In this document: positions 2,755 through 60,726 of the stretch, one piece after another
Layout of the letters: every line of letters starts with the position of its first letter
How positions within the stretch are numbered: the stretch's first letter is position 1
Source of the DNA: a virus
Direction: 5' to 3' (one strand)
DNA length: 64,000 nt
IMG/VR virus record: IMGVR_UViG_3300029060_000343
Notes under the pieces: model-generated
What the model was told of the DNA's origin: nothing
The model's input: only the letters and a program-made list of their open reading frames with translations
The model's database searches: none
Program-made: the position numbers and the translations under genes

Positions 2755-3213
2755 CTACCATAAATTTCGTTTTTCTTCCCATTTATAACATACGGTAATA
2801 TTCAGATCATCAATATCTCCGAATAATTCCTGTATAAAACTCCTTACGACTTCCCAGTCCATCCGATCCAGACCACAGCCAATTTTAGGCATTGCGATAG
2901 ATTTTATACCGTATGTAATGACAATATTGCGAAGCTCTTTTAATGCCGTCCGCATGGTCTTTTCCGAAGGCTTCATATAATATTTCGCCTTCGTCACCAG
3001 ATTTAGAACACGTGAGGTTACAATGCAGTATCCTTTACCGTTCCATACATTTGACCTGTAGTTTTTCTGCAGTTCCTGCTTCGTATTAAATCTTTTATTG
3101 AATTCAACAGCGATACCTTTTCCGCAAGCAAAATCAGCGGATATACACTGTACAAACCATACGTCAGGATCATCGATATCAAATAAATCCGCGTATTTTT
3201 CTATATATTGCAA
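2755..3213 (-). CDS. macro domain protein (ADP-ribose binding/hydrolase-like)
   Basis: Macro-domain-like glycine-rich segment (ISADFACGKGIAVEF); TTG start with GGGGGAG RBS; downstream hairpin terminator at 2650-2672. Confidence 0.6.
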   Translation of the reverse strand: MQYIEKYADLFDIDDPDVWFVQCISADFACGKGIAVEFNKRFNTKQELQKNYRSNVWNGKGYCIVTSRVLNLVTKAKYYMKPSEKTMRTALKELRNIVITYGIKSIAMPKIGCGLDRMDWEVVRSFIQELFGDIDDLNITVCYKWEEKRNLW

Positions 3214-10266: not shown

Positions 10267-11400
10267 TTATGCTGCTGTCAGTGTCCGCAGGCCTTCCTGC
10301 AGGATGTTGATGGCGGCATTCCTGTCCCTGCCCATCGTCAGACCACAGTCACATTTCATGGTGCGGACCCTGAGATCCTTCATTTCCGGATGCAGGGAAC
10401 CGCAGCAGTGACAGATCTGGGATGACGGAAACCATTTATCGACCTTGATGAGATACTTGTTTCTGTCGGCAAGCTTGTATTCGAGCATGGACAGAAACAT
10501 GCCATATCCGTTATCCAGGGTAGCTTTACCGTTCCCGAAACCTTTGTTTGCCATGGCACGCATATTTAAGGATTCCACGCATACGACATCATACCGGTTG
10601 GCTATCCCGGTAGAGATCTTATGCAGGTTATCCAGACGCTGATTGGCAATGTGTTTGTGGATCCTGTTGATCTTACGGAGCTGCTTTATGTAATTACTGG
10701 ATTTCACTTCATTCTTACGGGAACCCTGCATGCGTGACAGCCGGCGCTGCGCCCTGGCAAGCTTCCTGCTGCTCTCGCGGTAGTATTTATGATTCGTGCC
10801 AACGTTGCCGTTGTTGTCCACGTACAGCCCATCAGAGGCATAATCCAGTCCGATGGCGTTGGTTTTATCGGCAGTATAGGTATTTACAGGAGTTTCGAAT
10901 TCGAACAGGACGGAGACATAATACTTCCCGTCGGATTCCTGGGATACCGTGGCAGATTTGATGTTCCAGTCGTCTCCGGGCATACGATGGATGACAGCTT
11001 TTACTTTACCGGCCTTAGGCAGCCTGATAAAGCCGCCGTCCACGATAGCAACAGTACCCTTCTGGTTGTTGGTGGTATAAGACCTGCGGCTTCGCTTTGC
11101 GGACTTGAACTTAGGAAAACCAGTATTCTTCTTGTGCGACTTACTGAAACAGTTACGGAAGGCAGCCTGCAAATCCAACTGCTTGTTAGCAAGCGCAAGG
11201 CTGTCCACTTCTTTAAGATATGGATGATCCTTCTTGTATTTGGCAGGAGTGATAGCAGGGAATTTACCGGTAGTTTCATAGCCCTCAATCTTATCGGACA
11301 GCATGAGATTATAAACCTTCCGGCAGCATCCAAAGGTTTTTGCAAACAGGGCGCGTTGTTCAGTCGTAGGGTAGATCCGGTATCTGTAAGCATGGTTCAT
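10267..11400 (-). CDS. tnpB: TnpB (IS200/IS605 family OrfB, RuvC-like RNA-guided nuclease)
   Basis: Conserved OrfB N-terminus (YRYRIYPT), RuvC-I (GLDYA), RuvC-II (VESL), CHCCG...CDCG zinc finger, and RuvC-III (RDRNAAINI). Confidence 0.85.
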   Translation of the reverse strand: MNHAYRYRIYPTTEQRALFAKTFGCCRKVYNLMLSDKIEGYETTGKFPAITPAKYKKDHPYLKEVDSLALANKQLDLQAAFRNCFSKSHKKNTGFPKFKSAKRSRRSYTTNNQKGTVAIVDGGFIRLPKAGKVKAVIHRMPGDDWNIKSATVSQESDGKYYVSVLFEFETPVNTYTADKTNAIGLDYASDGLYVDNNGNVGTNHKYYRESSRKLARAQRRLSRMQGSRKNEVKSSNYIKQLRKINRIHKHIANQRLDNLHKISTGIANRYDVVCVESLNMRAMANKGFGNGKATLDNGYGMFLSMLEYKLADRNKYLIKVDKWFPSSQICHCCGSLHPEMKDLRVRTMKCDCGLTMGRDRNAAINILQEGLRTLTAA

Positions 11401-31153: not shown

Positions 31154-32764
31154 CTATTCAGTTACTTCCGTATAATCTTTCAACGTTTCCGATGTTTCTA
31201 CGGGATCCTTTTTCTCTGTTGTTTCTCTGTTATTTTTCTTCTGCAGTGCTCCTGTAAGCAGTGATGTCGGATCAATACCAGTAGATTCTTTGATACCATC
31301 AGAAACCTGCGTTACGGTAGTCATAATATCACCCGCAAGCTGGCTGGTATTTCCACCAAACATCTTTATGGAATCTACGTTCGTATATCCCTTAGCCACA
31401 GCCTCTGCGATCTTAGGCAGCTGCTCGAAGTATACCTTCAAAGTATCCAGTTCCATCTGCTGTTTTGCAGCGTCACCATACTGTTTCATAGCTTCCGCCT
31501 TCTTTAAGATACCGGCTGCCTCTGCCTCTGCCTTTGCCTGAATTGCTTCTGCTTCTGCCTTACCTTTTGCTGCTACGGCTGCTGCCTCGGCAAGACCTGC
31601 TGCCTTAACTGCCTCTGCTGCCTGTTCCTTAGCGAATCTCTCTGCCTCGGACTTTGCTTTCTCAGCTTCTGCCTGTCTCTGGATCTCGAAGAGTTCTGCC
31701 TCTGCTCTCTTCTGTCTCTCATACTGCTCAGCATCTGCCTTCTGCTGTGCTGCGTATTTATTCGCTTCTGCAGTCTTCTTGACCTCAGCTTCCAGAGCTT
31801 TCTCCTTGATGGATACTTCTCTCTCCTTTAATTCCAGTTCCTTCTCCTGACGGGCCAGGTTCGCGTTCGCTGTAGTGATCTCCACGGTCTTACGCTGTTC
31901 CTCTTCTTGAATCTTATATGCTGCATCTGCCTCAGCCTTCTTAATATCAGACTCTTTCTTCAGTTCTGCTTTCTTAATAGCCAGTTCGGTCTGCTTCTGT
32001 GCAATCTCAGTATCCGCAATGACCTGTGCATCATTGGCATCCTTCTGTGCCTGTGCTCTTGCAATCGCCACATCTCTGTCTGCCTGTGCCTTTGCAACGG
32101 AAGCATCCTTCTGAATCTGAGACATGTTATCCTGTCCCAAAGCAGTGATCAGGTTGTTCTCATCCTCAATCTTCTGGATATTACAGGACTCGATCCAGAT
32201 ACCCAGGGCATTCATATCCTTCTGTGCCTTTGCCTGTACCTCGTCACCGAAGGTCTTACGGTCATTACACAGTTCCTTTAAACACTGGGTACCGATAATC
32301 TCACGCATATTACCCTGTAAGGAATCGGTCAGCGCATCGCGAATTCCCTGTTCTTTCATATTCAGGAAGTTCTTCATAGCAGCCTGTGCCATTTCATGAG
32401 TAACTCTCTTATTGGAATCTGCCCCGGGAAGTAACTGCCCATTTTTATCAATGGTAACATCCTTTTCTGTAAGGACTCTTACTTTTGCCACCGCATCGAT
32501 ATCTACACCAATGAAATCCTTAGTCGGAATATATCCATTTGTCTTAATGTCGATACTGATCTGCTTTAACATCAATTCATCCTTCTTTTCCAAGAAAGGA
32601 ATCTTAATACCTGCACGACCGATTAATACCTTCGGCTCCTTTTTGAGACCGGAAATAATGTATGCCTTATCGGGAGACGCTTTTACATACCCGGACATCA
32701 AAATTCCAATCATCGCTACCGCAATAACTACTGCTATAATAACTCCTACACTAACACCACTCAT
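31154..32764 (-). CDS. flotillin-like SPFH/band-7 protein
   Basis: N-terminal TM segment; SPFH core followed by a long Ala/Glu/Lys-rich coiled coil (EA repeats); start at the ATG after the AAAGGAGAAAA RBS. Confidence 0.7.
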   Translation of the reverse strand: MSGVSVGVIIAVVIAVAMIGILMSGYVKASPDKAYIISGLKKEPKVLIGRAGIKIPFLEKKDELMLKQISIDIKTNGYIPTKDFIGVDIDAVAKVRVLTEKDVTIDKNGQLLPGADSNKRVTHEMAQAAMKNFLNMKEQGIRDALTDSLQGNMREIIGTQCLKELCNDRKTFGDEVQAKAQKDMNALGIWIESCNIQKIEDENNLITALGQDNMSQIQKDASVAKAQADRDVAIARAQAQKDANDAQVIADTEIAQKQTELAIKKAELKKESDIKKAEADAAYKIQEEEQRKTVEITTANANLARQEKELELKEREVSIKEKALEAEVKKTAEANKYAAQQKADAEQYERQKRAEAELFEIQRQAEAEKAKSEAERFAKEQAAEAVKAAGLAEAAAVAAKGKAEAEAIQAKAEAEAAGILKKAEAMKQYGDAAKQQMELDTLKVYFEQLPKIAEAVAKGYTNVDSIKMFGGNTSQLAGDIMTTVTQVSDGIKESTGIDPTSLLTGALQKKNNRETTEKKDPVETSETLKDYTEVTE

Positions 32765-32825
32765 TTTAAATTTTCTCCTTTTATGTATTTTTGTGCTTCT
32801 TTTAGAATTGCATTTTTGTTTTGAT

Positions 32826-33012
32826 TCCTGACCGCTCTGCACAGTCTAAAAACTGGCAGGTTCCAGGTACATGACAGCATCACTTGACAATTCCTGCAAC
32901 AGATCCGCTTTCTGACCGTAAAAATCAGAAACCAGATTTTTTTATGCAGAACAGTGTTTGTTATAGCTGCCGTACCTTAACTGGAATTTCGTCGCAAACA
33001 CTCCGATGATCG
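32826..33012. repeat. solo copy (~185 bp, ~85% identical) of the right end of the 58.7-60.5 kb IS element (MITE-like remnant or standalone omega-RNA locus)
   Basis: Direct alignment of 32832-33010 with 58748-58930 (CTCTGCACAGTCTAAA(A/G)ACTGGCAGGTTCC...TTTTTTATGCA(G/A)AACAGTGTTTGTTATAGCTGCCGTACCT...). Confidence 0.6.
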
Positions 33013-33036
33013 AAATCGCTTTTCTTCTGAATCCAT

Positions 33037-33396
33037 CTACAATACCTTATAAATTATTATTGCATGTTGTAATGGATTTTCGATTTCGGCACCGCAATGT
33101 ACACAATTAACAAATTCCGGAATCTCCAACGCTGTTTTATAAATATTTCCTGTAAATCTTTGACATTCAGGACAATATATATTGAGATACTGTTCAACAA
33201 TATTATTATCAACACATATTTCCAAAATATCATATATAACTTTTAGATCCATCCCCAGTTCTCGATGAATTGCATCTGGATAAATCCACTCATTGGAATG
33301 GTACTGTTTCATAAATTCCATGAATGCATCTAAATCGATATTAAATTTCTTCTCCTTTAACAAAGGAGCCACGGTTTGAAAGATATTCGATTGCAC
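33037..33396 (-). CDS. hypothetical zinc-finger protein (CPECQ...CVHCG)
   Basis: ORF track; lies next to the solo IS right-end copy. Confidence 0.5.
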   Translation of the reverse strand: MQSNIFQTVAPLLKEKKFNIDLDAFMEFMKQYHSNEWIYPDAIHRELGMDLKVIYDILEICVDNNIVEQYLNIYCPECQRFTGNIYKTALEIPEFVNCVHCGAEIENPLQHAIIIYKVL

Positions 33397-38015: not shown

Positions 38016-38106
38016 CGCCGTGGCGGGGAGTCGAACCCCGAAACCGGATTTTACTCCGAGATGGTGGATTAGCAATCCACTGCTGTACCATTTGAGCCAC
38101 CACGGC
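38016..38106 (-). tRNA. tRNA-Ser(GCU), class II
   Basis: Cloverleaf by eye: T-arm GGGGUUCGACUCCCC; anticodon loop UUGCUAA; long variable arm. Confidence 0.7.
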
Positions 38107-38119
38107 AAGAAATATAAAC

Positions 38120-38190
38120 GGCCCATTGCGGATTCGAACCGCAGTCCCTGGGGTCAAGGCCCAGTGCATTGACCGCTATGCTAATGGGCT
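38120..38190 (-). tRNA. tRNA-Gln(UUG) (anticodon loop CCUUGAC, atypical C33)
   Basis: T-arm GCGGUUCGAAUCCGC; anticodon stem CUGGG/CCCAG. Confidence 0.5.
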
Positions 38191-38197
38191 AAAAAAC

Positions 38198-38287
38198 GCC
38201 AGTGACAGGACTCGAACCTGTACGTCGACATAAATGCCGGCTTGCCTGTGTTCGAAGCAGGTGCTGTACCACTTGAGCCACACTGGC
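38198..38287 (-). tRNA. tRNA-Ser(CGA), class II
   Basis: T-arm CAGGUUCGAGUCCUG; loop UUCGAAC; long variable arm. Confidence 0.65.
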
Positions 38288-38289
38288 AG

Positions 38290-38380
38290 ACTCCCGTGCC
38301 CCGCAGATTGGCAGGTTTATCACGAATACCGCAGCCGTTAGTCAATTTCGACTGAAATACCGTTTAGCACGGGCTTTTTG
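38290..38380 (-). other. ~90-nt tRNA-sized structured element without canonical T-loop (tRNA pseudogene or unknown small RNA)
   Basis: Terminal complementarity GCCCGUG...CACGGG enclosing internal hairpins; no GTTCGAATC-type T-loop. Confidence 0.3.
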
Positions 38381-38437
38381 CATATACACTGAATAGAAAC
38401 AGGTGACTAATCTGCTTCGCACAGCTTAAATGCAAAG

Positions 38438-38511
38438 ACATCGGTGGGATTCGAACCCACGATAAAACCTGTTTTGCAGACAGGCGCCTTAGACCACTCG
38501 ACCACGATGCC
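38438..38511 (-). tRNA. tRNA-Cys(GCA)
   Basis: T-arm GUGGGUUCGAAUCCCAC; anticodon loop CUGCAAA. Confidence 0.7.
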
Positions 38512-38518
38512 ATAATAC

Positions 38519-38592
38519 TACGGACAGCGGGACTCGAACCCGCAAAGTACGATTTAGAAGACCGTTGTTTTATCCAATTAGACTATGCCCGT
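38519..38592 (-). tRNA. tRNA-Arg(UCU)
   Basis: T-arm GCGGGUUCGAGUCCCGC; anticodon loop CUUCUAA. Confidence 0.7.
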
Positions 38593-38598
38593 ATAAAA

Positions 38599-38671
38599 TA
38601 TCCCCAGGCAGATTTGAACTGCCGTTCCCTGCGTGAGAGGCAGATGTCCTTGACCGCTAGACTATGGGGAC
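38599..38671 (-). tRNA. tRNA-Glu(CUC)
   Basis: 5' GUCCCC Glu-like acceptor; T-arm GGCAGUUCAAAUCUGCC; loop CUCUCAC. Confidence 0.65.
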
Positions 38672-38675
38672 TTAA

Positions 38676-38767
38676 CGCTGTGACAGGGATTCGAACCCTG
38701 AAAGCGGGAATCTCACCCGACATGCCGGATTTCAAGGCCGGTGCTGTACCAGTTGAGCCATCACAGC
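38676..38767 (-). tRNA. tRNA-Ser(UGA), class II
   Basis: T-arm CAGGGUUCGAAUCCCUG; loop CUUGAAA; long variable arm. Confidence 0.65.
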
Positions 38768-38772
38768 AAAAG

Positions 38773-38863
38773 CGGAACGGGAGGGACTTGAACCCTCAAA
38801 GCGTGGATTGACACGACATGTCCGGCTTCCAACCGGGTCCTGTACCAATTGAGGCACCGCTCC
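38773..38863 (-). tRNA. tRNA-Ser(GGA), class II
   Basis: T-arm GAGGGUUCAAGUCCCUC; loop UUGGAAG; long variable arm. Confidence 0.6.
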
Positions 38864-38891
38864 ATATCAGGCTCTTTAACAAGAGCCTTTA

Positions 38892-39413
38892 TCATTTTGA
38901 AATTTTATCAGCAATTCCGGATGCAACATAAGACTCCGGCTTAACCTTTGCCTCAAAACCCATTGAAGTGACCCAGCCTATGAGCTCAGGAATCAATTCC
39001 TTCGTCTTACCATGTTCAGAATAACCAGCATCAATATGAATAGAAAACTCTGTGTTCAAAAATACGTCTTCATATTCCGTTGTCTCAAATATTGTAATAA
39101 GCTGTTCTGCTATTTCAAGTGAATCGCCGGTTTCCACACGAAGTTTTGTTCTTACATCTGAAATACGGTCACGTGCGTTAATCTTATAAAAGAAAATACC
39201 GCCGTGTCCTTCACAGATCACAGCAATTACACTTACTTCTTTCGTATAATCAAAATTCTGCGAATCCGTACCGATCGTAATATGAATACCGGTACCATAC
39301 TCTTTCATTCTTTCATAGTAAGCCTTTATATATTTTGGAATTTCCTGTATCATAAGCTCACCGTGTGATGGCGAAATCCAGTTTTCACTGTAATGTTTCT
39401 TACTCATGATCAC
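38892..39413 (-). CDS. hypothetical protein embedded in the tRNA array (possible RNase-H-like/DUF458-type fold)
   Basis: ORF track; TIGTDSQ segment; flanked by tRNAs on both sides. Confidence 0.45.
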   Translation of the reverse strand: MIMSKKHYSENWISPSHGELMIQEIPKYIKAYYERMKEYGTGIHITIGTDSQNFDYTKEVSVIAVICEGHGGIFFYKINARDRISDVRTKLRVETGDSLEIAEQLITIFETTEYEDVFLNTEFSIHIDAGYSEHGKTKELIPELIGWVTSMGFEAKVKPESYVASGIADKISK

Positions 39414-39437
39414 GTTGCTCCTTTCTGATATTTTTTA

Positions 39438-39513
39438 GCAGGCGCGGAGGGATTCGAACCCCCAGACAATCACGGTTTTGGAGACCGTTGCTGTACCAGT
39501 TGAGCCACGCACC
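39438..39513 (-). tRNA. tRNA-Trp(CCA)
   Basis: T-arm GGGGGUUCGAAUCCCUC; loop CUCCAAA. Confidence 0.7.
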
Positions 39514-39755
39514 CATAATAATGAACAATAAAAAACAGCCTCTTTTGATAAACTTTTTATCAGAAGATGCTGCAGAGAATGCCGGTAATTTTGTTATGCG
39601 AAAATTTTTGCATCAACAAATAAAGCAGTACATCTTCTTATCATGTCTACTCTCTGACCACGAACTATTGGATTGTCTGCTACATCTGTTTACGTTATGC
39701 ATAATTATTTACTCCTTCCTGCAATTTTTCTGTATCTGCATAAAAACTGGAAAAA

Positions 39756-39829
39756 TACGCCAAATCGGATTCGAACCGATACTAACAGGGGCTTAAACCC
39801 TGTGCCTCTGCCGATTGGGCTATTGGCGC
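39756..39829 (-). tRNA. tRNA with anticodon UAA (Leu codon UUA), class I length with Leu-type D-arm
   Basis: Loop UUUAAGC (G37); 3-bp D-stem with long D-loop; 5-nt variable region. Confidence 0.55.
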
Positions 39830-39833
39830 ATAA

Positions 39834-39906
39834 TGGGTATGACAGGCCATGATCCTGCAACCTTCGGCTTAAGAGGCCGATACTCTGCCACTTGAGTTAC
39901 ATACCC
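39834..39906 (-). tRNA. tRNA-Lys(CUU), noncanonical T-loop
   Basis: Perfect acceptor GGGUAUG/CAUACCC; loop CUCUUAA; T-loop AUCAUGG. Confidence 0.6.
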
Positions 39907-39928
39907 GTGGATACACATGCGGTATCAG

Positions 39929-40012
39929 TGCACCCGACGAGACTCGAACTCGCATGGAAAGTAATTCCGCCAGATTAAAAGTCTGGTGCCATACCAATTA
40001 GGCGACGGATGC
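39929..40012 (-). tRNA. class-II-shaped tRNA with anticodon UUU (Lys codon AAA)
   Basis: Loop CUUUUAA; extra arm GGAAUUACUUUCC; 3-bp D-stem. Confidence 0.5.
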
Positions 40013-40091
40013 ATACATTATAACTTTGATAATCGCTTGCATAACTGTTTTCGTTTCATGATTATTTCTCCTTTATTATAAAGATTTTCAA

Positions 40092-40163
40092 TCCCAAGGA
40101 CAGGATTTGAACCTGCGTTTGCCGGGTATGAACCGGCCGTACTCGCCGCTATACTACCCTGGA
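40092..40163 (-). tRNA. tRNA-Met(CAU), elongator or Ile2-type
   Basis: Loop UUCAUAC; T-arm GCAGGUUCAAAUCCUGU. Confidence 0.65.
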
Positions 40164-40164
40164 G

Positions 40165-40241
40165 TAGCGGGTCCAGGAGTCGAAGCCTGGTATCGCAAGG
40201 GTTATGAGCCCTGCATGGTAAATCCGTTCCACTCACCCGCA
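40165..40241 (-). tRNA. initiator tRNA-fMet(CAU)
   Basis: GGGCUCAUAACCC anticodon arm with three G-C pairs, identical to the bacterial initiator; 1:72 mismatch. Confidence 0.65.
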
Positions 40242-40243
40242 AA

Positions 40244-40316
40244 TGCTGATAACAGGACTCGAACCTGTAACCCCATGCTTGTAAGGCATATGCTCTCCCA
40301 GTTGAGCTACATCAGC
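40244..40316 (-). tRNA. tRNA-Val(UAC)
   Basis: Canonical cloverleaf; loop CUUACAA; T-arm CAGGUUCGAGUCCUG. Confidence 0.75.
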
Positions 40317-40320
40317 ATAG

Positions 40321-40391
40321 TTGTGGTGGACAGAGTCGGACTGTCGTTAACCGCTCATCAGACGGTCTTTCTACCATTGAAATACACCACA
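40321..40391 (-). tRNA. tRNA-Ile(GAU), noncanonical T-loop
   Basis: Loop CUGAUGA; T-loop UCCGACU. Confidence 0.55.
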
Positions 40392-40404
40392 ATATTTTTT
40401 ATGA

Positions 40405-40478
40405 AGCCTGTGACAAGATTTGAACTTGCAACCCTCTACTTACGAGATAGACGCTCTGCCAATTAGAGCTACACAGGC
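40405..40478 (-). tRNA. tRNA-Thr(CGU)
   Basis: Loop CUCGUAA; T-arm CAAGUUCAAAUCUUG. Confidence 0.7.
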
Positions 40479-40487
40479 ATTTTACAG

Positions 40488-40559
40488 TGCTCCCATGGCG
40501 ACTCGAACGCCAACTACAGAGTTCGTAGCCCTGCCGTCTATCCATTAGCGTATGAGAGC
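40488..40559 (-). tRNA. tRNA-Arg(ACG)
   Basis: Loop CUACGAA; T-arm GGCGUUCGAGUCGCC. Confidence 0.7.
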
Positions 40560-40563
40560 ATAG

Positions 40564-40634
40564 CAGGCGGTAACCGAATCGAACGGGTGTCTCACGGCTC
40601 AGAACCGCACGGTTTACCTCTAACCTAACCGCCT
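40564..40634 (-). tRNA. tRNA-Gln(CUG)
   Basis: Loop UUCUGAG; T-loop UUCGAUU. Confidence 0.6.
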
Positions 40635-40636
40635 AT

Positions 40637-40709
40637 AAGCCGCAGAAGGGACTCGAACCCTTAATCCCCTGATTACAAAGCAGGTGCATTACCATTGTGC
40701 TACAGCGGC
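40637..40709 (-). tRNA. tRNA-Thr(UGU)
   Basis: Loop UUUGUAA; T-arm AGGGUUCGAGUCCCU. Confidence 0.65.
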
Positions 40710-40723
40710 ATATTTAATTTCAG

Positions 40724-40807
40724 GGAGACCAGTGGGGCTCGAACCCACGTAGGAATTGCTTCCGCAGAGCCACAATCTGCTGCCTAACCAACTCGGCCAC
40801 AGCCTCC
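40724..40807 (-). tRNA. tRNA-His(GUG) with G-1:C73 and an unusual extra arm
   Basis: Loop UUGUGGC; 8-bp acceptor including G-1; extra arm GGAAGCAAUUCC. Confidence 0.5.
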
Positions 40808-40811
40808 ATAG

Positions 40812-40883
40812 CTGGAATGGCGGGACTTGAACCCACAACCTACCGGTTAACAGCCGGTCGCTCTACCATTGAGCTACAAACCA
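40812..40883 (-). tRNA. tRNA-Asn(GUU)-like copy with weakened acceptor stem (possible pseudo-tRNA)
   Basis: Body nearly identical to the tRNA-Asn at 41637..41709; two U·U mismatches in the acceptor. Confidence 0.4.
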
Positions 40884-40900
40884 ATACTATATTATCTAAA

Positions 40901-40974
40901 TGGGGCGAGTGAGAATCGAACTCACGACACACGGCTTATAAGGCCGCTGCTCTTGACCCCTGAGCTACCACCCC
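40901..40974 (-). tRNA. tRNA-Ile(UAU)
   Basis: Loop CUUAUAA; T-arm GUGAGUUCGAUUCUCAC. Confidence 0.6.
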
Positions 40975-41060
40975 TTATGAAATAAGGTTCGGTATAGATA
41001 TTCGTCTCATAGTCTTGTTTCTCCTTTATATTTGTTATACTCTTTCTACAGGAAAGAAAA

Positions 41061-41134
41061 TGTACCAGAAGGGATTCGAACCCATAGAAAACCGGATTTG
41101 AGCCGGCCCCGTCTGCCAGTTGCGGCACTGATGC
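41061..41134 (-). tRNA. tRNA with anticodon CAA (Leu codon UUG), class I length with Leu-type D-arm
   Basis: Loop CUCAAAU; D-arm CCGCAACUGGCAGACGG; short variable region. Confidence 0.5.
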
Positions 41135-41140
41135 ATACAG

Positions 41141-41213
41141 TCGGAATGACAGGTCTCGAACCTGCAGCCTCATGATCCCAAATCACGCGCGCTACCAATT
41201 GCGCCACATCCCG
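41141..41213 (-). tRNA. tRNA-Pro(UGG)
   Basis: 5' CGGGAUG; loop UUUGGGA; T-arm GCAGGUUCGAGACCUGU. Confidence 0.7.
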
Positions 41214-41219
41214 ATACAG

Positions 41220-41293
41220 TGCCCATGAGTGGTTTCGAACCACCAACCTCTGCCATCTGAAGACAGTTCGTCTGCCAATTGCGCCACATGGAC
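41220..41293 (-). tRNA. tRNA with anticodon CAG (Leu codon CUG), class I length
   Basis: Loop UUCAGAU; T-arm GGUGGUUCGAAACCACU; 5-nt variable region. Confidence 0.5.
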
Positions 41294-41300
41294 ATCACAG

Positions 41301-41378
41301 TACCTCGAATGGGAGTCGAACCCATAAACAATCACAGAGTCCTTAGCTCTGCCGCTTTGCCAATTTGCGTACCGAGGC
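41301..41378 (-). tRNA. tRNA with anticodon AAG (Leu codon CUU), short variable region
   Basis: Loop CUAAGGA; Leu-type D-arm CGCAAAUUGGCAAAGCG; T-arm UGGGUUCGACUCCCA. Confidence 0.5.
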
Positions 41379-41392
41379 ATATTTATTTTAAG

Positions 41393-41476
41393 TGGGCGAA
41401 GAAGGACTTGAACCTTCAGAAGCCGAAGCCAACTGTTTTACAGACAGTACCGCTGCCAATTACGGGATATTCGCCC
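41393..41476 (-). tRNA. tRNA-Tyr(GUA), class II
   Basis: Loop CUGUAAA; long variable arm; T-arm GAAGGUUCAAGUCCUUC. Confidence 0.7.
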
Positions 41477-41481
41477 AAAAG

Positions 41482-41569
41482 TCGGCAGGGTGAGAGTCGA
41501 ACTCACAATGTTTACCACGAGGGTCACAGTTTTACAGACTGCTTGCTTCAGCCTTTTGCATACCTGCCG
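41482..41569 (-). tRNA. tRNA-Tyr(GUA), second copy with divergent sequence, class II
   Basis: Loop CUGUAAA; perfect acceptor CGGCAGG/CCUGCCG; long variable arm. Confidence 0.65.
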
Positions 41570-41636
41570 TTAATAATATTCAGTTCCCATATAATAATAG
41601 TCTGGCATATCAGTCATCTCCTTTACATTTCTTAAG

Positions 41637-41709
41637 CTCTCACAGCAGGACTTGAACCTGCAACATCCCGGTTAACAGCCGGACGCTCTACCGATTGAGC
41701 TATGCGAGA
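41637..41709 (-). tRNA. tRNA-Asn(GUU)
   Basis: Loop CUGUUAA; T-arm GCAGGUUCAAGUCCUGC. Confidence 0.7.
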
Positions 41710-41713
41710 ATAG

Positions 41714-41786
41714 AGTGCGTGAACGGATTCGAACCGTCCCTTTCTGCTTGGAAGGCAGATGTGCTATCCGCTGACACTACACACAC
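41714..41786 (-). tRNA. tRNA-Gly(UCC)
   Basis: Loop CUUCCAA; T-arm GACGGUUCGAAUCCGUU. Confidence 0.65.
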
Positions 41787-41791
41787 ATAAG

Positions 41792-41867
41792 CGACTCCAA
41801 CGGGATTTGAACCCGTGTTATTCCTGCGTGACAGGCAGGTGCCATAAACCAGCTAGGCGATGGAGCC
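41792..41867 (-). tRNA. tRNA-Asp(GUC)
   Basis: Loop CUGUCAC; T-arm CACGGGUUCAAAUCCCGU. Confidence 0.65.
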
Positions 41868-41871
41868 ATAA

Positions 41872-41943
41872 TGCCTCGTTTCGGTTACGATCCGATCCTC
41901 TGGAGCTTCAATCCAGCGCTTCTACCAAGTTAGCTTACGAGGC
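41872..41943 (-). tRNA. tRNA-Phe(GAA), noncanonical T-loop
   Basis: Perfect acceptor GCCUCGU/ACGAGGC; loop UUGAAGC; T-loop AUCGUAA. Confidence 0.6.
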
Positions 41944-42050
41944 TCGGTAAAGTCAGTATCGTCTTTACCGCCATAAAATCGTTTATCCATATTTTTTCAA
42001 TGTCCTTTCGTATATTGTATAAATCCTGAGTGCCTGGTTCAGAATTTAAG

Positions 42051-42123
42051 AGCAGATGACGGAACTCGAATCCGCATTTCTGACTTGGCAAGCCAGTGTA
42101 TTAGCCAGCTATACGACATCTGC
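42051..42123 (-). tRNA. tRNA-Gly(GCC)
   Basis: Perfect acceptor GCAGAUG/CAUCUGC; loop UUGCCAA; T-arm GCGGAUUCGAGUUCCGU. Confidence 0.7.
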
Positions 42124-42190
42124 ATGTGGGACAAACGGAGTGCCTGGTTCCATAAGTCCCTGTTTTGTTGTATTACGGATATTTCCGTAG

Positions 42191-42263
42191 CGACCGATGC
42201 GGGATTCGAACCCACGTCTCGGGAGTGAAATTCCCGTGACCTCGTCCTCTAGTCGAATCGGCC
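42191..42263 (-). tRNA. tRNA-Glu(UUC)
   Basis: Perfect acceptor GGCCGAU/AUCGGUC; loop AUUUCAC; T-arm GUGGGUUCGAAUCCCGC. Confidence 0.65.
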
Positions 42264-42270
42264 AAATCAA

Positions 42271-42347
42271 TGGAGCATATGAGAATCGAACCCATCTGTT
42301 TTTCCTGTTTGCAAAACAGGCGACCACCCCTTGCAGTCCCATACCCC
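42271..42347 (-). tRNA. tRNA-Ala(UGC) with G3:U70
   Basis: 5' GGGGUAU with G3·U70 wobble; loop UUUGCAA; T-arm AUGGGUUCGAUUCUCAU. Confidence 0.6.
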
Positions 42348-58504: not shown

Positions 58505-58741
58505 TGATTCCTCCTGTTTTAAGGAGCTCCCTGTTGCTCCAATTATCTTTGATAACATTAATATGCAGGAAAATATATTTCTAATTCCAAAGCTATCCGA
58601 AATACTTCAGCACCTTGCAACCCTCTTTTGAAAAACTGATATAAGCGTATCTGCAGAATCCAATGGAAGGAACATTTGCGACATTTTCTATCATATTCTC
58701 GTGCAAATGGCCATGAAAATGGTACACAGGCTGTCTGTTCA

Positions 58742-58975
58742 GTAGATACCATCTGACAGCTCTGCACAGTCTAAAGACTGGCAGGTTCCTGGTATATAGC
58801 AGCATCACTTAACGATTCTTACAACGGATCCGGTTTCTGATTTTTATGGTCAGGAAGCGGATCTTTTTTATGCAAAACAGTGTTTGTTATAGCTGCCGTA
58901 CCTAAATGGAATTTCGCTGCAAACGCTCCGATGAGCGCTTAACGCAGCCGGATCCTGTCGAACCCGTTTGTATGA
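58742..58975 (-). ncRNA. putative omega-RNA scaffold region 3' of the tnpB-like gene
   Basis: By position; an ~85%-identical solo copy of this segment sits at 32826-33012. Confidence 0.25.
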
Positions 58976-60442
58976 TTAACAGTGACATTTATGGTATTCG
59001 TAACTTCGCAATCCGAAGCTAGAAGGATATTTCTTATTCTCTGCAAGGAGCGCGTTCATGCAGGCATCATGTGTTATCAGGAACATGGGGAAGGTGTCGA
59101 TACATTTCTGTCTGTCGGCGGCCGTGCCGGTGTCGTTACTGTTCTTTAGCAGGAACGCCGAATACAGATCTCTCTGTATGTAGTGGCCGCCAACGAAACT
59201 TCCCCGGCAAGAAAGCTTCTTTCGGACGTAGTCATCCGTTACATGGTTGTACTGACTGGCGCGGAAGTTTACGGTATCGATCTTAATTAACTCCCCGCCG
59301 CCGGAAGCGAGCCGGCTTTCCAGAATCTTTAGGAACGCTGCCGGTGCGTGGTTGCCTATGGATTTTCCGAACCGCTTCCTGCTCCGGAACCGGCCATCGG
59401 CTTTCTTCGTGGCAGACTTCGATCTCCGTGCAAGACCATGGAAAAACATCTTTTCCACGTACGCGGTATCTGCCTTCGAGGCAATTTCATTCGCAAGCCG
59501 GTGGTGGCCGGTATTTATCGCATCGGCATGCCGGCGTTCCATGGACTTCTTGCGGAACTGAAGCTTCCTGTAGTGCTTCGAACGAATCCACTTCCTTGCA
59601 CCCTTGCGGACAGTGCCGTCCGGCAGATAATTATCCGGATTCGTGATGCGTCTGCTCCGGTCCATGGCTCTCTGAGTCCGCCTGATTTGCGCAGAATGAT
59701 CTTTTGCATCGGAACTGAGTACCGTCAGTTTACAGGAATCCTTGGTCACGATAGCCGCGGTAGAGATCCCGATATCCAGTCCGGCGGTTCCATGACAGAC
59801 CGGATGCTTTACCGGGGGCTTTCCTTCCAGAACCAGCTGCAAGTAGTAGTGGTATTTCGTACCCACGGGCTTCCTCTGGATACGGCAGTACTTTACACGG
59901 GATTTCAGAGCTTTCCGGTCATAATCCGTCCGGATCTGCGGCTGGATCACCTGCCCGCGCCAATAAAGCCGGCCGTCTTTGAACCGCATGCCGGAAGTAT
60001 TTTTCTTACCTTCCATGCTTTCGAATTCATCGTATTTCCTGAAATGAATACATTTCCCGTTATCAAACAGATACTTCTCCACGGACCGCCATACGGAAGA
60101 AGCGATCTTCTGGGCTACATCAGAGTCAATGGATTTCTTGTATCTGTGCTGCTGTACAGCAACATACGTATGCAGCTGGTATTCACTGAGTCCATAACCT
60201 CGGCGGATGTCAGCAAGCTCCTGATTGATGCGGTTCTTATCAACTTTCGATAGACCAGACTCCTTCCTCGCAGCCAGATGATCTCGATACTCCGGATCCT
60301 GTATTAACTTCCGGAGTTGCTTCCGGCAGTGCCGCACAAGGACGTTGTAGATCTGCTGTCCACACCAGAAAGTATGAGAAAGCCACCGGTCCTGCTCGAG
60401 AGAAGTATTCAGTTTTAATGTCAAACCGAATGATTCTGTCAT
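58976..60442 (-). CDS. tnpB: TnpB-like RuvC-fold protein (IS605/IS1341 family) with degenerate zinc finger
   Basis: RuvC-I (GLDIGIS), RuvC-II region (AYVEKMF) and RuvC-III-like (QRDLYSAFLLKN); the usual CxxC...CxxC module keeps only one Cys. Confidence 0.65.
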   Translation of the reverse strand: MTESFGLTLKLNTSLEQDRWLSHTFWCGQQIYNVLVRHCRKQLRKLIQDPEYRDHLAARKESGLSKVDKNRINQELADIRRGYGLSEYQLHTYVAVQQHRYKKSIDSDVAQKIASSVWRSVEKYLFDNGKCIHFRKYDEFESMEGKKNTSGMRFKDGRLYWRGQVIQPQIRTDYDRKALKSRVKYCRIQRKPVGTKYHYYLQLVLEGKPPVKHPVCHGTAGLDIGISTAAIVTKDSCKLTVLSSDAKDHSAQIRRTQRAMDRSRRITNPDNYLPDGTVRKGARKWIRSKHYRKLQFRKKSMERRHADAINTGHHRLANEIASKADTAYVEKMFFHGLARRSKSATKKADGRFRSRKRFGKSIGNHAPAAFLKILESRLASGGGELIKIDTVNFRASQYNHVTDDYVRKKLSCRGSFVGGHYIQRDLYSAFLLKNSNDTGTAADRQKCIDTFPMFLITHDACMNALLAENKKYPSSFGLRSYEYHKCHC

Positions 60443-60457
60443 AAATACTCCTTATAT

Positions 60458-60475
60458 AGTTATTATGACAGAATT
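60458..60475 (-). promoter_or_regulatory. conserved intergenic motif copy (AGTTATTATGACAGAATT) directly upstream of the tnpB-like gene, followed by a TTTCTGCACAGAAA box
   Basis: Lies inside the inferred IS left end. Confidence 0.45.
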
Positions 60476-60726
60476 TGAGTTCCCTGCAGATTTCTGCACA
60501 GAAAGACGCATTCCTCCTCACGGTCTGAAGACAGGAGGCTTCCTGCTATGGTATTTGTGAATGAGTGTCCGTTATGAATAGCGCACGAAATTGCCCGGTA
60601 CATCCCGGAATCTCCCGTTTACGAACCTCAAAACGCTTTTCTTCCTCGGAAAACATGACTTTTTTCGCTGTATCATTATGCATGATTTTTCTTCTTAACA
60701 ATCTGTCCAAAAACATAATTTCTCTC

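Follow-up and report, generated by a model that had tools for sequence, protein, structure and literature searches.

The window, by which we mean the whole 64 kb of DNA that was analysed, holds two copies of a sequence of about 185 bp, both on the minus strand. One of them, called the solo copy below (32828-33012), sits in the leader or intergenic region 64 nt upstream of the ATG of a flotillin/SPFH gene (31154-32764, minus strand; Pfam Band_7, 1.3e-15, and Flot, 2.9e-09). The original prediction had put it downstream of flotillin; the flotillin and tnpB-like open reading frames are both on the minus strand, and the copy is upstream of the former. An orphan gene of 119 aa (33037-33396, minus strand) lies immediately upstream of the solo copy and is co-directional with it. 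Between the 119-aa gene and the flotillin gene we found no terminator and one weak promoter-like site (33083-33056). With a gene on either side that points the same way and no terminator in the interval, the solo copy is probably read through by transcription, the likely source being the 119-aa gene, and we infer that the transcript would form part of the flotillin leader. A segment of about 53 nt is missing from the flotillin leader of the window (32765-32800) and is present in L009, where the site is occupied (3090-3185), and in L108, where it is empty (2930-3000).

Elsewhere, the 119/120-aa protein is encoded by the middle gene of a conserved cassette of three genes of about 370, 120 and 236 aa (L046-L056), of which the 236-aa gene matches Mrr_cat (PF04471) and the ~370-aa gene is of unknown function. 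Only the middle gene of the cassette survives in the window, the first gene also being reduced to a stub. PADLOC did not recognise the three-gene cassette, which is hosted by Lachnospira / Clostridium sp. CAG:62-like genomes and adjoins restriction-modification or sortase genes there. The window also contains 31 tRNA genes in 4.3 kb (38016-42347, minus strand), all above the Rfam gathering score. This array had raised the suspicion of a jumbo phage, but a phage origin was rejected, as flotillin, LemA and the other neighbours are chromosomal Lachnospiraceae genes; the synteny around flotillin was seen in L008-L017 and L108. The DNA comes from a member of the human-gut Lachnospiraceae, a bacterial relative of Clostridium sp. 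AF34-10BH / Waltera.

The second copy of the repeat (58753-58937) belongs to the right end (RE) of a transposable element. In a blastn comparison of the window with itself, 32828-33012 and 58753-58937 formed an alignment of 186 nt with an identity of 83.9% (E = 8e-52), in agreement with the predicted value of about 85%, and the similarity held in a MAFFT alignment as well. The same blastn search revealed no third copy in the 64 kb, and a covariance model built from other copies found full-length matches in the window only at the solo copy and at the right end of the element, so that there are two copies only. The left edge of the similarity (32828 and 58753, respectively) is the exact RE terminus of the transposon. 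Much of the ~16% divergence stems from a central hairpin of 40 nt that is inverted in the solo copy, where blastn matched 32898-32937 to 58828-58867 on opposite strands at 90%.

The element itself is a complete tnpB-only IS200/IS605-family element of 1,804 bp (58753-60556, minus strand), delimited by independent insertions, an empty site and relatives that carry tnpA. It consists of a left end (LE; 60443-60556, minus strand), a tnpB gene (58976-60442, minus strand) and the RE/omega-RNA region (58753-58975, minus strand). Its RE always ends in ...GTGCAGAGCTGTCAG, beyond which the flanks are unrelated at 14 distinct sites. The LE starts with AAATACCATAGCAGG and is preceded by TYAC, either TCAC or TTAC, in 11 of 11 distinct junctions; the tetranucleotide abutting the LE in the window, the target or transposon-adjacent motif (TAM), is TCAC (60557-60560, minus strand). 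The site is empty in L018/L019, which read ...GGAATCAC^ATGGTATC, that is, TCAC followed by ATGGTATCTACTG. The 20 nt directly 3' of the RE in the window, ATGGTATCTACTGAACAGAC (58733-58752, minus strand), equal the sequence after TCAC in L018/L019, so that the flank expected to act as the guide coincides with the TAM-adjacent empty site, in line with the TnpB homing model (Meers et al.). At the RE-side junction duplicated bases were absent from two empty sites, none of the sites having both junctions together with an empty allele.

The element in the window has no tnpA of its own. In L030-L034, a Y1 TnpA of 132 aa (Pfam Y1_Tnp, PF01797, E = 2.3e-38) lies directly upstream of a tnpB that is 85% identical, which assigns the element to the IS200/IS605 family. 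Imperfect subterminal hairpins of related sequence are found at both ends, CCTCCTGTCTTCAGACCGTGAGGAGG in the LE and CTGCCAGTCTTTAGACTGTGCAG in the RE, and the covariance model R1, described below, gives a weak match on the LE. An IStron or group I intron was considered and rejected, since the LE is merely 114 nt long and the Rfam scan produced no intron match. The G+C content of the element is 50%, versus 39% for the window, which suggests a donor lineage of higher G+C. The element interrupts a metallophosphoesterase-like open reading frame (58593-58808, 60557-60640) that is intact in L019 (...WYLLNRQPVYHFHGHLHEN...), and the DNA on the LE side (60557-60640) is not the other half of that gene. 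This mismatch indicates that the element stands at a rearrangement junction, probably formed by recombination between two copies.

The original prediction regarded this element as the parent of the solo copy, and the comparison speaks against it. Outside the hairpin, the solo copy shows an identity of 88% to the element in the window and of about 91% to subtypes at other sites. Furthermore, all 15 related contigs examined carry the solo copy, while the site of the element (58.7-60.6 kb) is unoccupied in L018/L019, and relatives have the element at other places. The two copies are relatives that arose by separate insertions, not parent and offspring.

The tnpB gene encodes a protein of 488 aa that, judged by NCBIfam, PHROG and an alignment of RuvC motifs, is a member of a divergent TnpB clade with an intact RuvC triad. 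It matches the NCBIfam model guided_TnpB (NF040570) from end to end (E = 1.3e-19), with a score of 70.7 bits that is below the cutoff of 100, and matches phrog_506, annotated as 'transposase', at 1e-41. No Pfam family was hit by the 488-aa protein; PF01385 was found on relatives of 50% identity. A profile search of the PDB was empty, and phmmer gave a single weak PDB match, TranC (9jfo, E = 0.03), a TnpB/Cas12-transitional protein. In an hhalign alignment, GLDIG and YVEKM line up with GLDYA and CVESL, the RuvC-I and RuvC-II motifs of a canonical TnpB that is also encoded in the window, and the third RuvC aspartate (D425) was assigned by motif (QRDLYSA) only. D223, E330 and D425 are invariant in 14 homologues of 48-100% identity. 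The CxxC...CxxC cysteines of the zinc ribbon are lost, the protein reading SQYNHVTDDY where SQxCxxCG is expected, and members of the clade are about 484-497 aa long. TnpB homologues number in the thousands, with copies of 83-96% identity in human-gut metagenomes and Clostridium sp. AF34-10BH; a related-locus search with TnpB confirmed no relatives in the viral or GTDB collections. A second, canonical TnpB of 377 aa is encoded at 10267-11400 (minus strand; Pfam HTH_OrfB_IS605, OrfB_IS605 and Cas12f1-like_TNB; phrog_506, 2.6e-103), and its DNA is unrelated to the element at 58753-60556.

That the region 3' of tnpB encodes an RNA of the omega-RNA type, as had been predicted, was borne out by its structure. 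An RNAalifold analysis of 15 distinct right ends, from full elements and from miniature elements (MITEs), yielded 68 pairs in helices P1-P8, with compensatory double changes at 11 pairs. Paired cells amounted to 97.2%, versus 29-40% when partners were slid by 1-3 columns. Double-change cells numbered 35; shuffling the columns gave 15.7 +/- 2.6, and none of 500 shuffles reached 35. Many of the conserved pairs are G.U and can form on the tnpB-sense strand only, indicating that it is an RNA that is conserved, and not the DNA hairpins of TnpA. By position, strand, structure and guide logic, this RNA is an omega-RNA under a sequence-level definition. The proposed check against omega-RNA models was answered in two ways: Rfam has no family for it, neither a gathering scan of the window nor an E-value scan of the right end of the element yielding one, and the purpose-built covariance model finds both copies. 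The Rfam scans otherwise returned only tRNAs and a HOTAIR match that we consider spurious.

The covariance model R1, which covers the core P3-P8 and was built without the solo copy, scores the solo copy at 164.9 bits and the live element at 182.6 bits. The match of the solo copy (32828-32990) covers the full length of the model (positions 1-164) with one non-canonical pair. The solo copy thus contains the omega-RNA-like scaffold helices P3-P8, together with the 3' arm of P2. Three of its private substitutions fall in the intact stems P6 and P8 and keep pairing (G.U to G-C, U-A to U.G, and C-G to U.G). In otherwise invariant columns, private substitutions number 6 in the solo copy and 5 in the live element of the window, counts that do not discriminate relaxed constraint; one of the six, a T-to-G change, lies 6 nt from the terminus in a column that is invariant in all other copies. 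The central hairpin P7 (32898-32937, minus strand) is inverted relative to every other copy, full-length or miniature. By eye, it agrees with the type-A hairpin at 33 of 36 positions once the latter is reverse-complemented, versus roughly 23 of 36 in the forward direction. It folds into a stem of 5+9 bp and is a small inversion that preserves the stem, with the loop complemented. The flipped hairpin occurs in the solo copy only. Among the active copies, the hairpin sequences fall into two other types, which show heavy covariation. A T-run follows the central hairpin on the plus strand.

Blastn, the shared terminus and the covariance model identify the solo copy as an RE remnant of an IS200/IS605-family tnpB element. 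Its two edges are of different kinds. The 3' end reads ...GAGCGGTCAG at 32828, followed by GAATCAAAACAAAAATGCAA (32808-32827, minus strand), a candidate guide and original target flank directly 3' of the RE terminus. The terminus ...GCAGAGC(G/T)GTCAG is common to the solo copy and 14 other insertion sites, the final ...GTCAG being the end of every IS and MITE copy. At the other edge, a deletion junction (33009-33012) interrupts the stem-loop P2 and joins it to an Mrr-like gene at the EKRFR start of the latter. The 27 nt past the stop codon of the 119-aa gene (ATGGATTCAGAAGAAAAGCGATTTCGA) show homology to the beginning of the 236-aa gene of L046 (ATGCAAGAAAAGCGATTTAGA; EKRFR) and represent a 5' stub, of about nine codons, of an Mrr-type nuclease gene (33009-33036, minus strand). 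The TAM, the LE and tnpB are missing from the solo copy, as are P1 and the 5' arm of P2, and no LE homology was found within 2 kb of it.

The site before insertion was recovered in L108. This related strain has a flotillin orthologue of 92% identity with the same genes upstream, a TPM-phosphatase, LemA and a 67-aa gene. The distance from the 67-aa gene to flotillin is 153 nt, and both the 119-aa gene and the RE are absent. The flanks are about 91-95% identical to those of the occupied strain, and the empty allele reads ...ATATAGATTAC|GAATCAAAACAAAAAAATGCAACTCT...; on the guide side it reads TTAC|GAATCAAAACAAAAAAATGCAA, a TTAC TAM followed by the flank of the solo copy. The 15 TAM-proximal nucleotides (GAATCAAAACAAAAA) all match that flank, after which there is a 2-nt difference in an A-run. 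Because L108 holds an unoccupied TTAC|GAATCAAAACAAAAA target, the 3' junction of the solo copy is a genuine transposition junction. The suggested comparison of flanks as guides matched the flank of each copy to a TAM-adjacent empty site, in L019 for the element and in L108 for the solo copy.

Taken together, these data identify the segment as the last 185 bp, at the 3' end, of a tnpB element of the IS200/IS605 family, left over after the loss of the remainder. The prediction of a remnant of transposition was correct, with an RE terminus at its original TTAC target and a deletion junction at the other edge. An ancestral element inserted directly 3' of TTAC, some 115 nt ahead of the flotillin start codon, in the genome of a gut Lachnospiraceae. 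The TAM, the LE, tnpB and ~35 nt at the start of the right-end region were deleted in a later rearrangement, which joined the RE to a fragment of the unrelated three-gene cassette, namely the orphan 119-aa gene and nine codons of the Mrr-type nuclease gene. The relic has become fixed in the lineage as an immobile sequence; having no LE, it cannot be excised by a Y1 transposase. We consider it more likely than not that the solo copy is evolutionarily passive, a neutral relic as opposed to a guide gene kept for its function. The coding gene next to it varies just as little, and hence nothing marks the RNA as the object of selection.

Decay of this kind recurs in the family, as is indicated by RE-only stumps with the flank TCTATGATT, 55 nt long in L074, L089, L091 and L101 and 128 nt long in L107, at a site where L076 and L080 have a full element. 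Miniature elements of about 330 bp, consisting of an LE of ~106 nt and the last ~217 nt of the RE, are present in four metagenome contigs (L072, L078, L086 and L104); in all four, the tnpB open reading frame has been removed almost exactly from start to stop codon and P1/P2 are kept. The sample of stumps and MITEs was ascertained on the RE terminus, so that LE-only relics would have escaped. The MITE of L104 shares its RE flank with the full element of L001 and has a different LE flank, and its RE is identical to that of the MITE in L072. This mosaic of flanks and right ends points to exchange between copies.

The principal alternative to a passive relic, which we consider possible though rather unlikely, is a live stand-alone guide-RNA gene. 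The transcript would keep the core omega-RNA fold (P3-P8) and the original target flank, and so resemble a 5'-truncated guide RNA; if made, the RNA would be about 150-200 nt long and its 3' part would read ...GCAGAGCGGUCAG-GAAUCAAAAC. A TnpB, either that of 58976-60442 or one from other genomic copies, would bind and trim the read-through transcript and cut TTAC + GAATCAAAACAAAAA. Cutting of the empty allele, for example after recombination or DNA uptake between strains, would be repaired with the occupied allele as template, copying in a linked block of ~0.6 kb, and the relic would serve as an allele-retention or drive device though no longer transposing. Several observations are in keeping with it. 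The core scaffold is intact, pairing is kept at the private substitutions and the inverted hairpin still folds, and the private changes (6) hardly exceed those of the live copy (5). A same-family TnpB with invariant RuvC D/E/D residues is encoded in the window, 26 kb away, and together with the intact core scaffold it makes use of the solo copy in trans against the empty allele possible. The solo copy points the same way as the gene upstream, from which no terminator separates it, and a related strain has an empty allele with TAM and a 15/15 seed match.

There are also precedents. The 5' part of the omega-RNA is dispensable for ISDra2 TnpB, for which ~116 nt of scaffold suffice, and mismatches at guide positions 13-16 are tolerated (PMC10097598). 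An omega-RNA works in trans with equal activity (10.1101/2023.11.20.567912), and the omega-RNAs of PATEs act in trans (10.1101/2023.03.14.532601). Against these precedents, P1 and half of P2 are missing from the solo copy and are nearly invariant in the 15 active IS and MITE copies, and so may be required in this clade; the T-to-G change near the terminus likewise touches a column that is otherwise invariant. No TAM-adjacent guide target was found in the window, the GTDB representative genomes or IMG/VR. The matches that the guide search returned, 10 in genomes and 4 in viruses, were rejected as chance matches in unrelated taxa, none of them following TYAC, and the solo guide has no other match in the window at up to 3 mismatches. 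An exact-match search of IMG/VR for the conserved RE blocks was empty, as was blastn against GenBank phages.

The distribution of the block among strains reads both ways. Across 12 haplotypes the 119-aa gene varies as little as the RE, and the invariant block occurs on two flotillin alleles, one of which is the type seen at the empty site. The alleles are about 21-27% apart (78 mismatches of 365, or 73% identity with gaps), measured over the first 365 nt of the coding sequence. The pattern fits gene conversion into empty backgrounds and fits ordinary homologous recombination equally well, and the equal invariance of the adjacent gene also counts against a guide function. The specific proposal that the LE-less omega-RNA relic programs a resident TnpB to cut the TTAC-GAATCAAAAC allele, driving the linked 0.6-kb block of the 119-aa gene and RE, would explain the invariance of the block on such divergent flotillin alleles, and would mean that TnpB guide genes are able to outlive their transposon and drive neighbouring host DNA; we think it improbable.

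A cis-acting role in the flotillin leader, in which the solo copy would tune flotillin expression as a structured 5' UTR or as a site bound by TnpB, without DNA targeting, is very unlikely. Its position on the coding strand, 64 nt ahead of the ATG and not separated from it by a terminator or strong promoter, would suit such a role, the copy is kept on both flotillin allele types, and TnpB bound to omega-RNA-containing transcripts can repress RNA processing (10.1101/2023.11.20.567912). However, orthologous flotillin genes function without the solo RE (L108, L109 and L113), no covariation or conservation is particular to the solo copy, and its position is fully accounted for by the site of the TTAC target.

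The suggestion that the solo copy is a MITE or PATE with both ends, still movable by a Y1 transposase, deserves hardly any credence. True LE+RE miniatures of the same element family do occur, as described above, but the solo copy has no TAM and no left end within 2 kb, its 5' side is a 27-nt gene remnant followed by a coding gene, and its RE is truncated at the 5' end relative to those of the MITEs (185 nt versus 217 nt). Having lost the LE, tnpB and one and a half stem-loops at the 5' side of the scaffold, it is a relic, not a MITE. Finally, chance similarity, or a larger repeat unrelated to the element, can practically be dismissed, as nothing was found in its favour, the E-value is 8e-52, the similarity halts at a terminus set by independent insertions, and neither flank matches.

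Transposon relics like the solo RE are familiar, and nothing demonstrates that this one is still used; both IS relics and trans-acting omega-RNAs of tnpB-less elements are already known. The locus is a well-resolved case of IS200/IS605 decay, in which the empty allele and the deletion junction could both be recovered for an end stranded at its original target, and the outcome is ordinary. If the relic were still used, it would mean that TnpB guide RNAs persist and act after the death of the transposon, a stage intermediate between selfish homing and guide loci that a host retains, of which TldR guides or CRISPR-like arrays are examples. The locus is directly testable, as the candidate guide, the TAM, a natural target allele and the cognate nuclease are all identified. 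The analysis also defines, in human-gut Lachnospiraceae, a divergent TnpB clade without a zinc ribbon, its TYAC TAM, its RNA structure and its companion MITEs.

In comparison with known systems, the element resembles the tnpB-only IS200/IS605 elements of the ISDra2 and ISGst types in having a Y1 TnpA in its autonomous relatives, a TnpB with the RuvC triad, subterminal LE and RE hairpins of similar sequence, and a sense RNA that runs from the tnpB stop codon to the RE terminus. As in these systems, the flank acts as a guide that matches the TAM and the empty site. The TTAC target is shared with IS608, insertion here being 3' of TYAC. Unlike them, the 488-aa TnpB is divergent, has lost the zinc-ribbon cysteines and has no profile-level relative in the PDB, and the omega-RNA region lies wholly downstream of the stop codon with no overlap of the open reading frame.

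The solo copy shares with PATEs and MITEs (Meers et al., 10.1101/2023.03.14.532601) the lack of tnpB and a scaffold with its own flanking guide, and like them it would depend on TnpB from elsewhere. PATEs, however, have both ends and are mobile, whereas the solo copy is without LE and TAM, its scaffold is truncated at the 5' end, and it is fused to gene fragments. A guide-RNA locus outside its transposon context and beside a host gene is also reminiscent of TldR (PMC10705468). In TldR systems the RuvC site is inactivated and the guide matches a promoter of the same genome; in the window RuvC is intact, with a conserved triad, and a search at up to 3 mismatches showed no second match of the guide there. 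A domesticated pair of the TldR type was therefore rejected. The solo copy also resembles solo IS ends and remnants, which have one authentic terminus at the original target and an illegitimate junction at the opposite edge, and are fixed and immobile. The solo copy differs from them in that the retained end would encode a potentially autonomous guide scaffold together with its guide.
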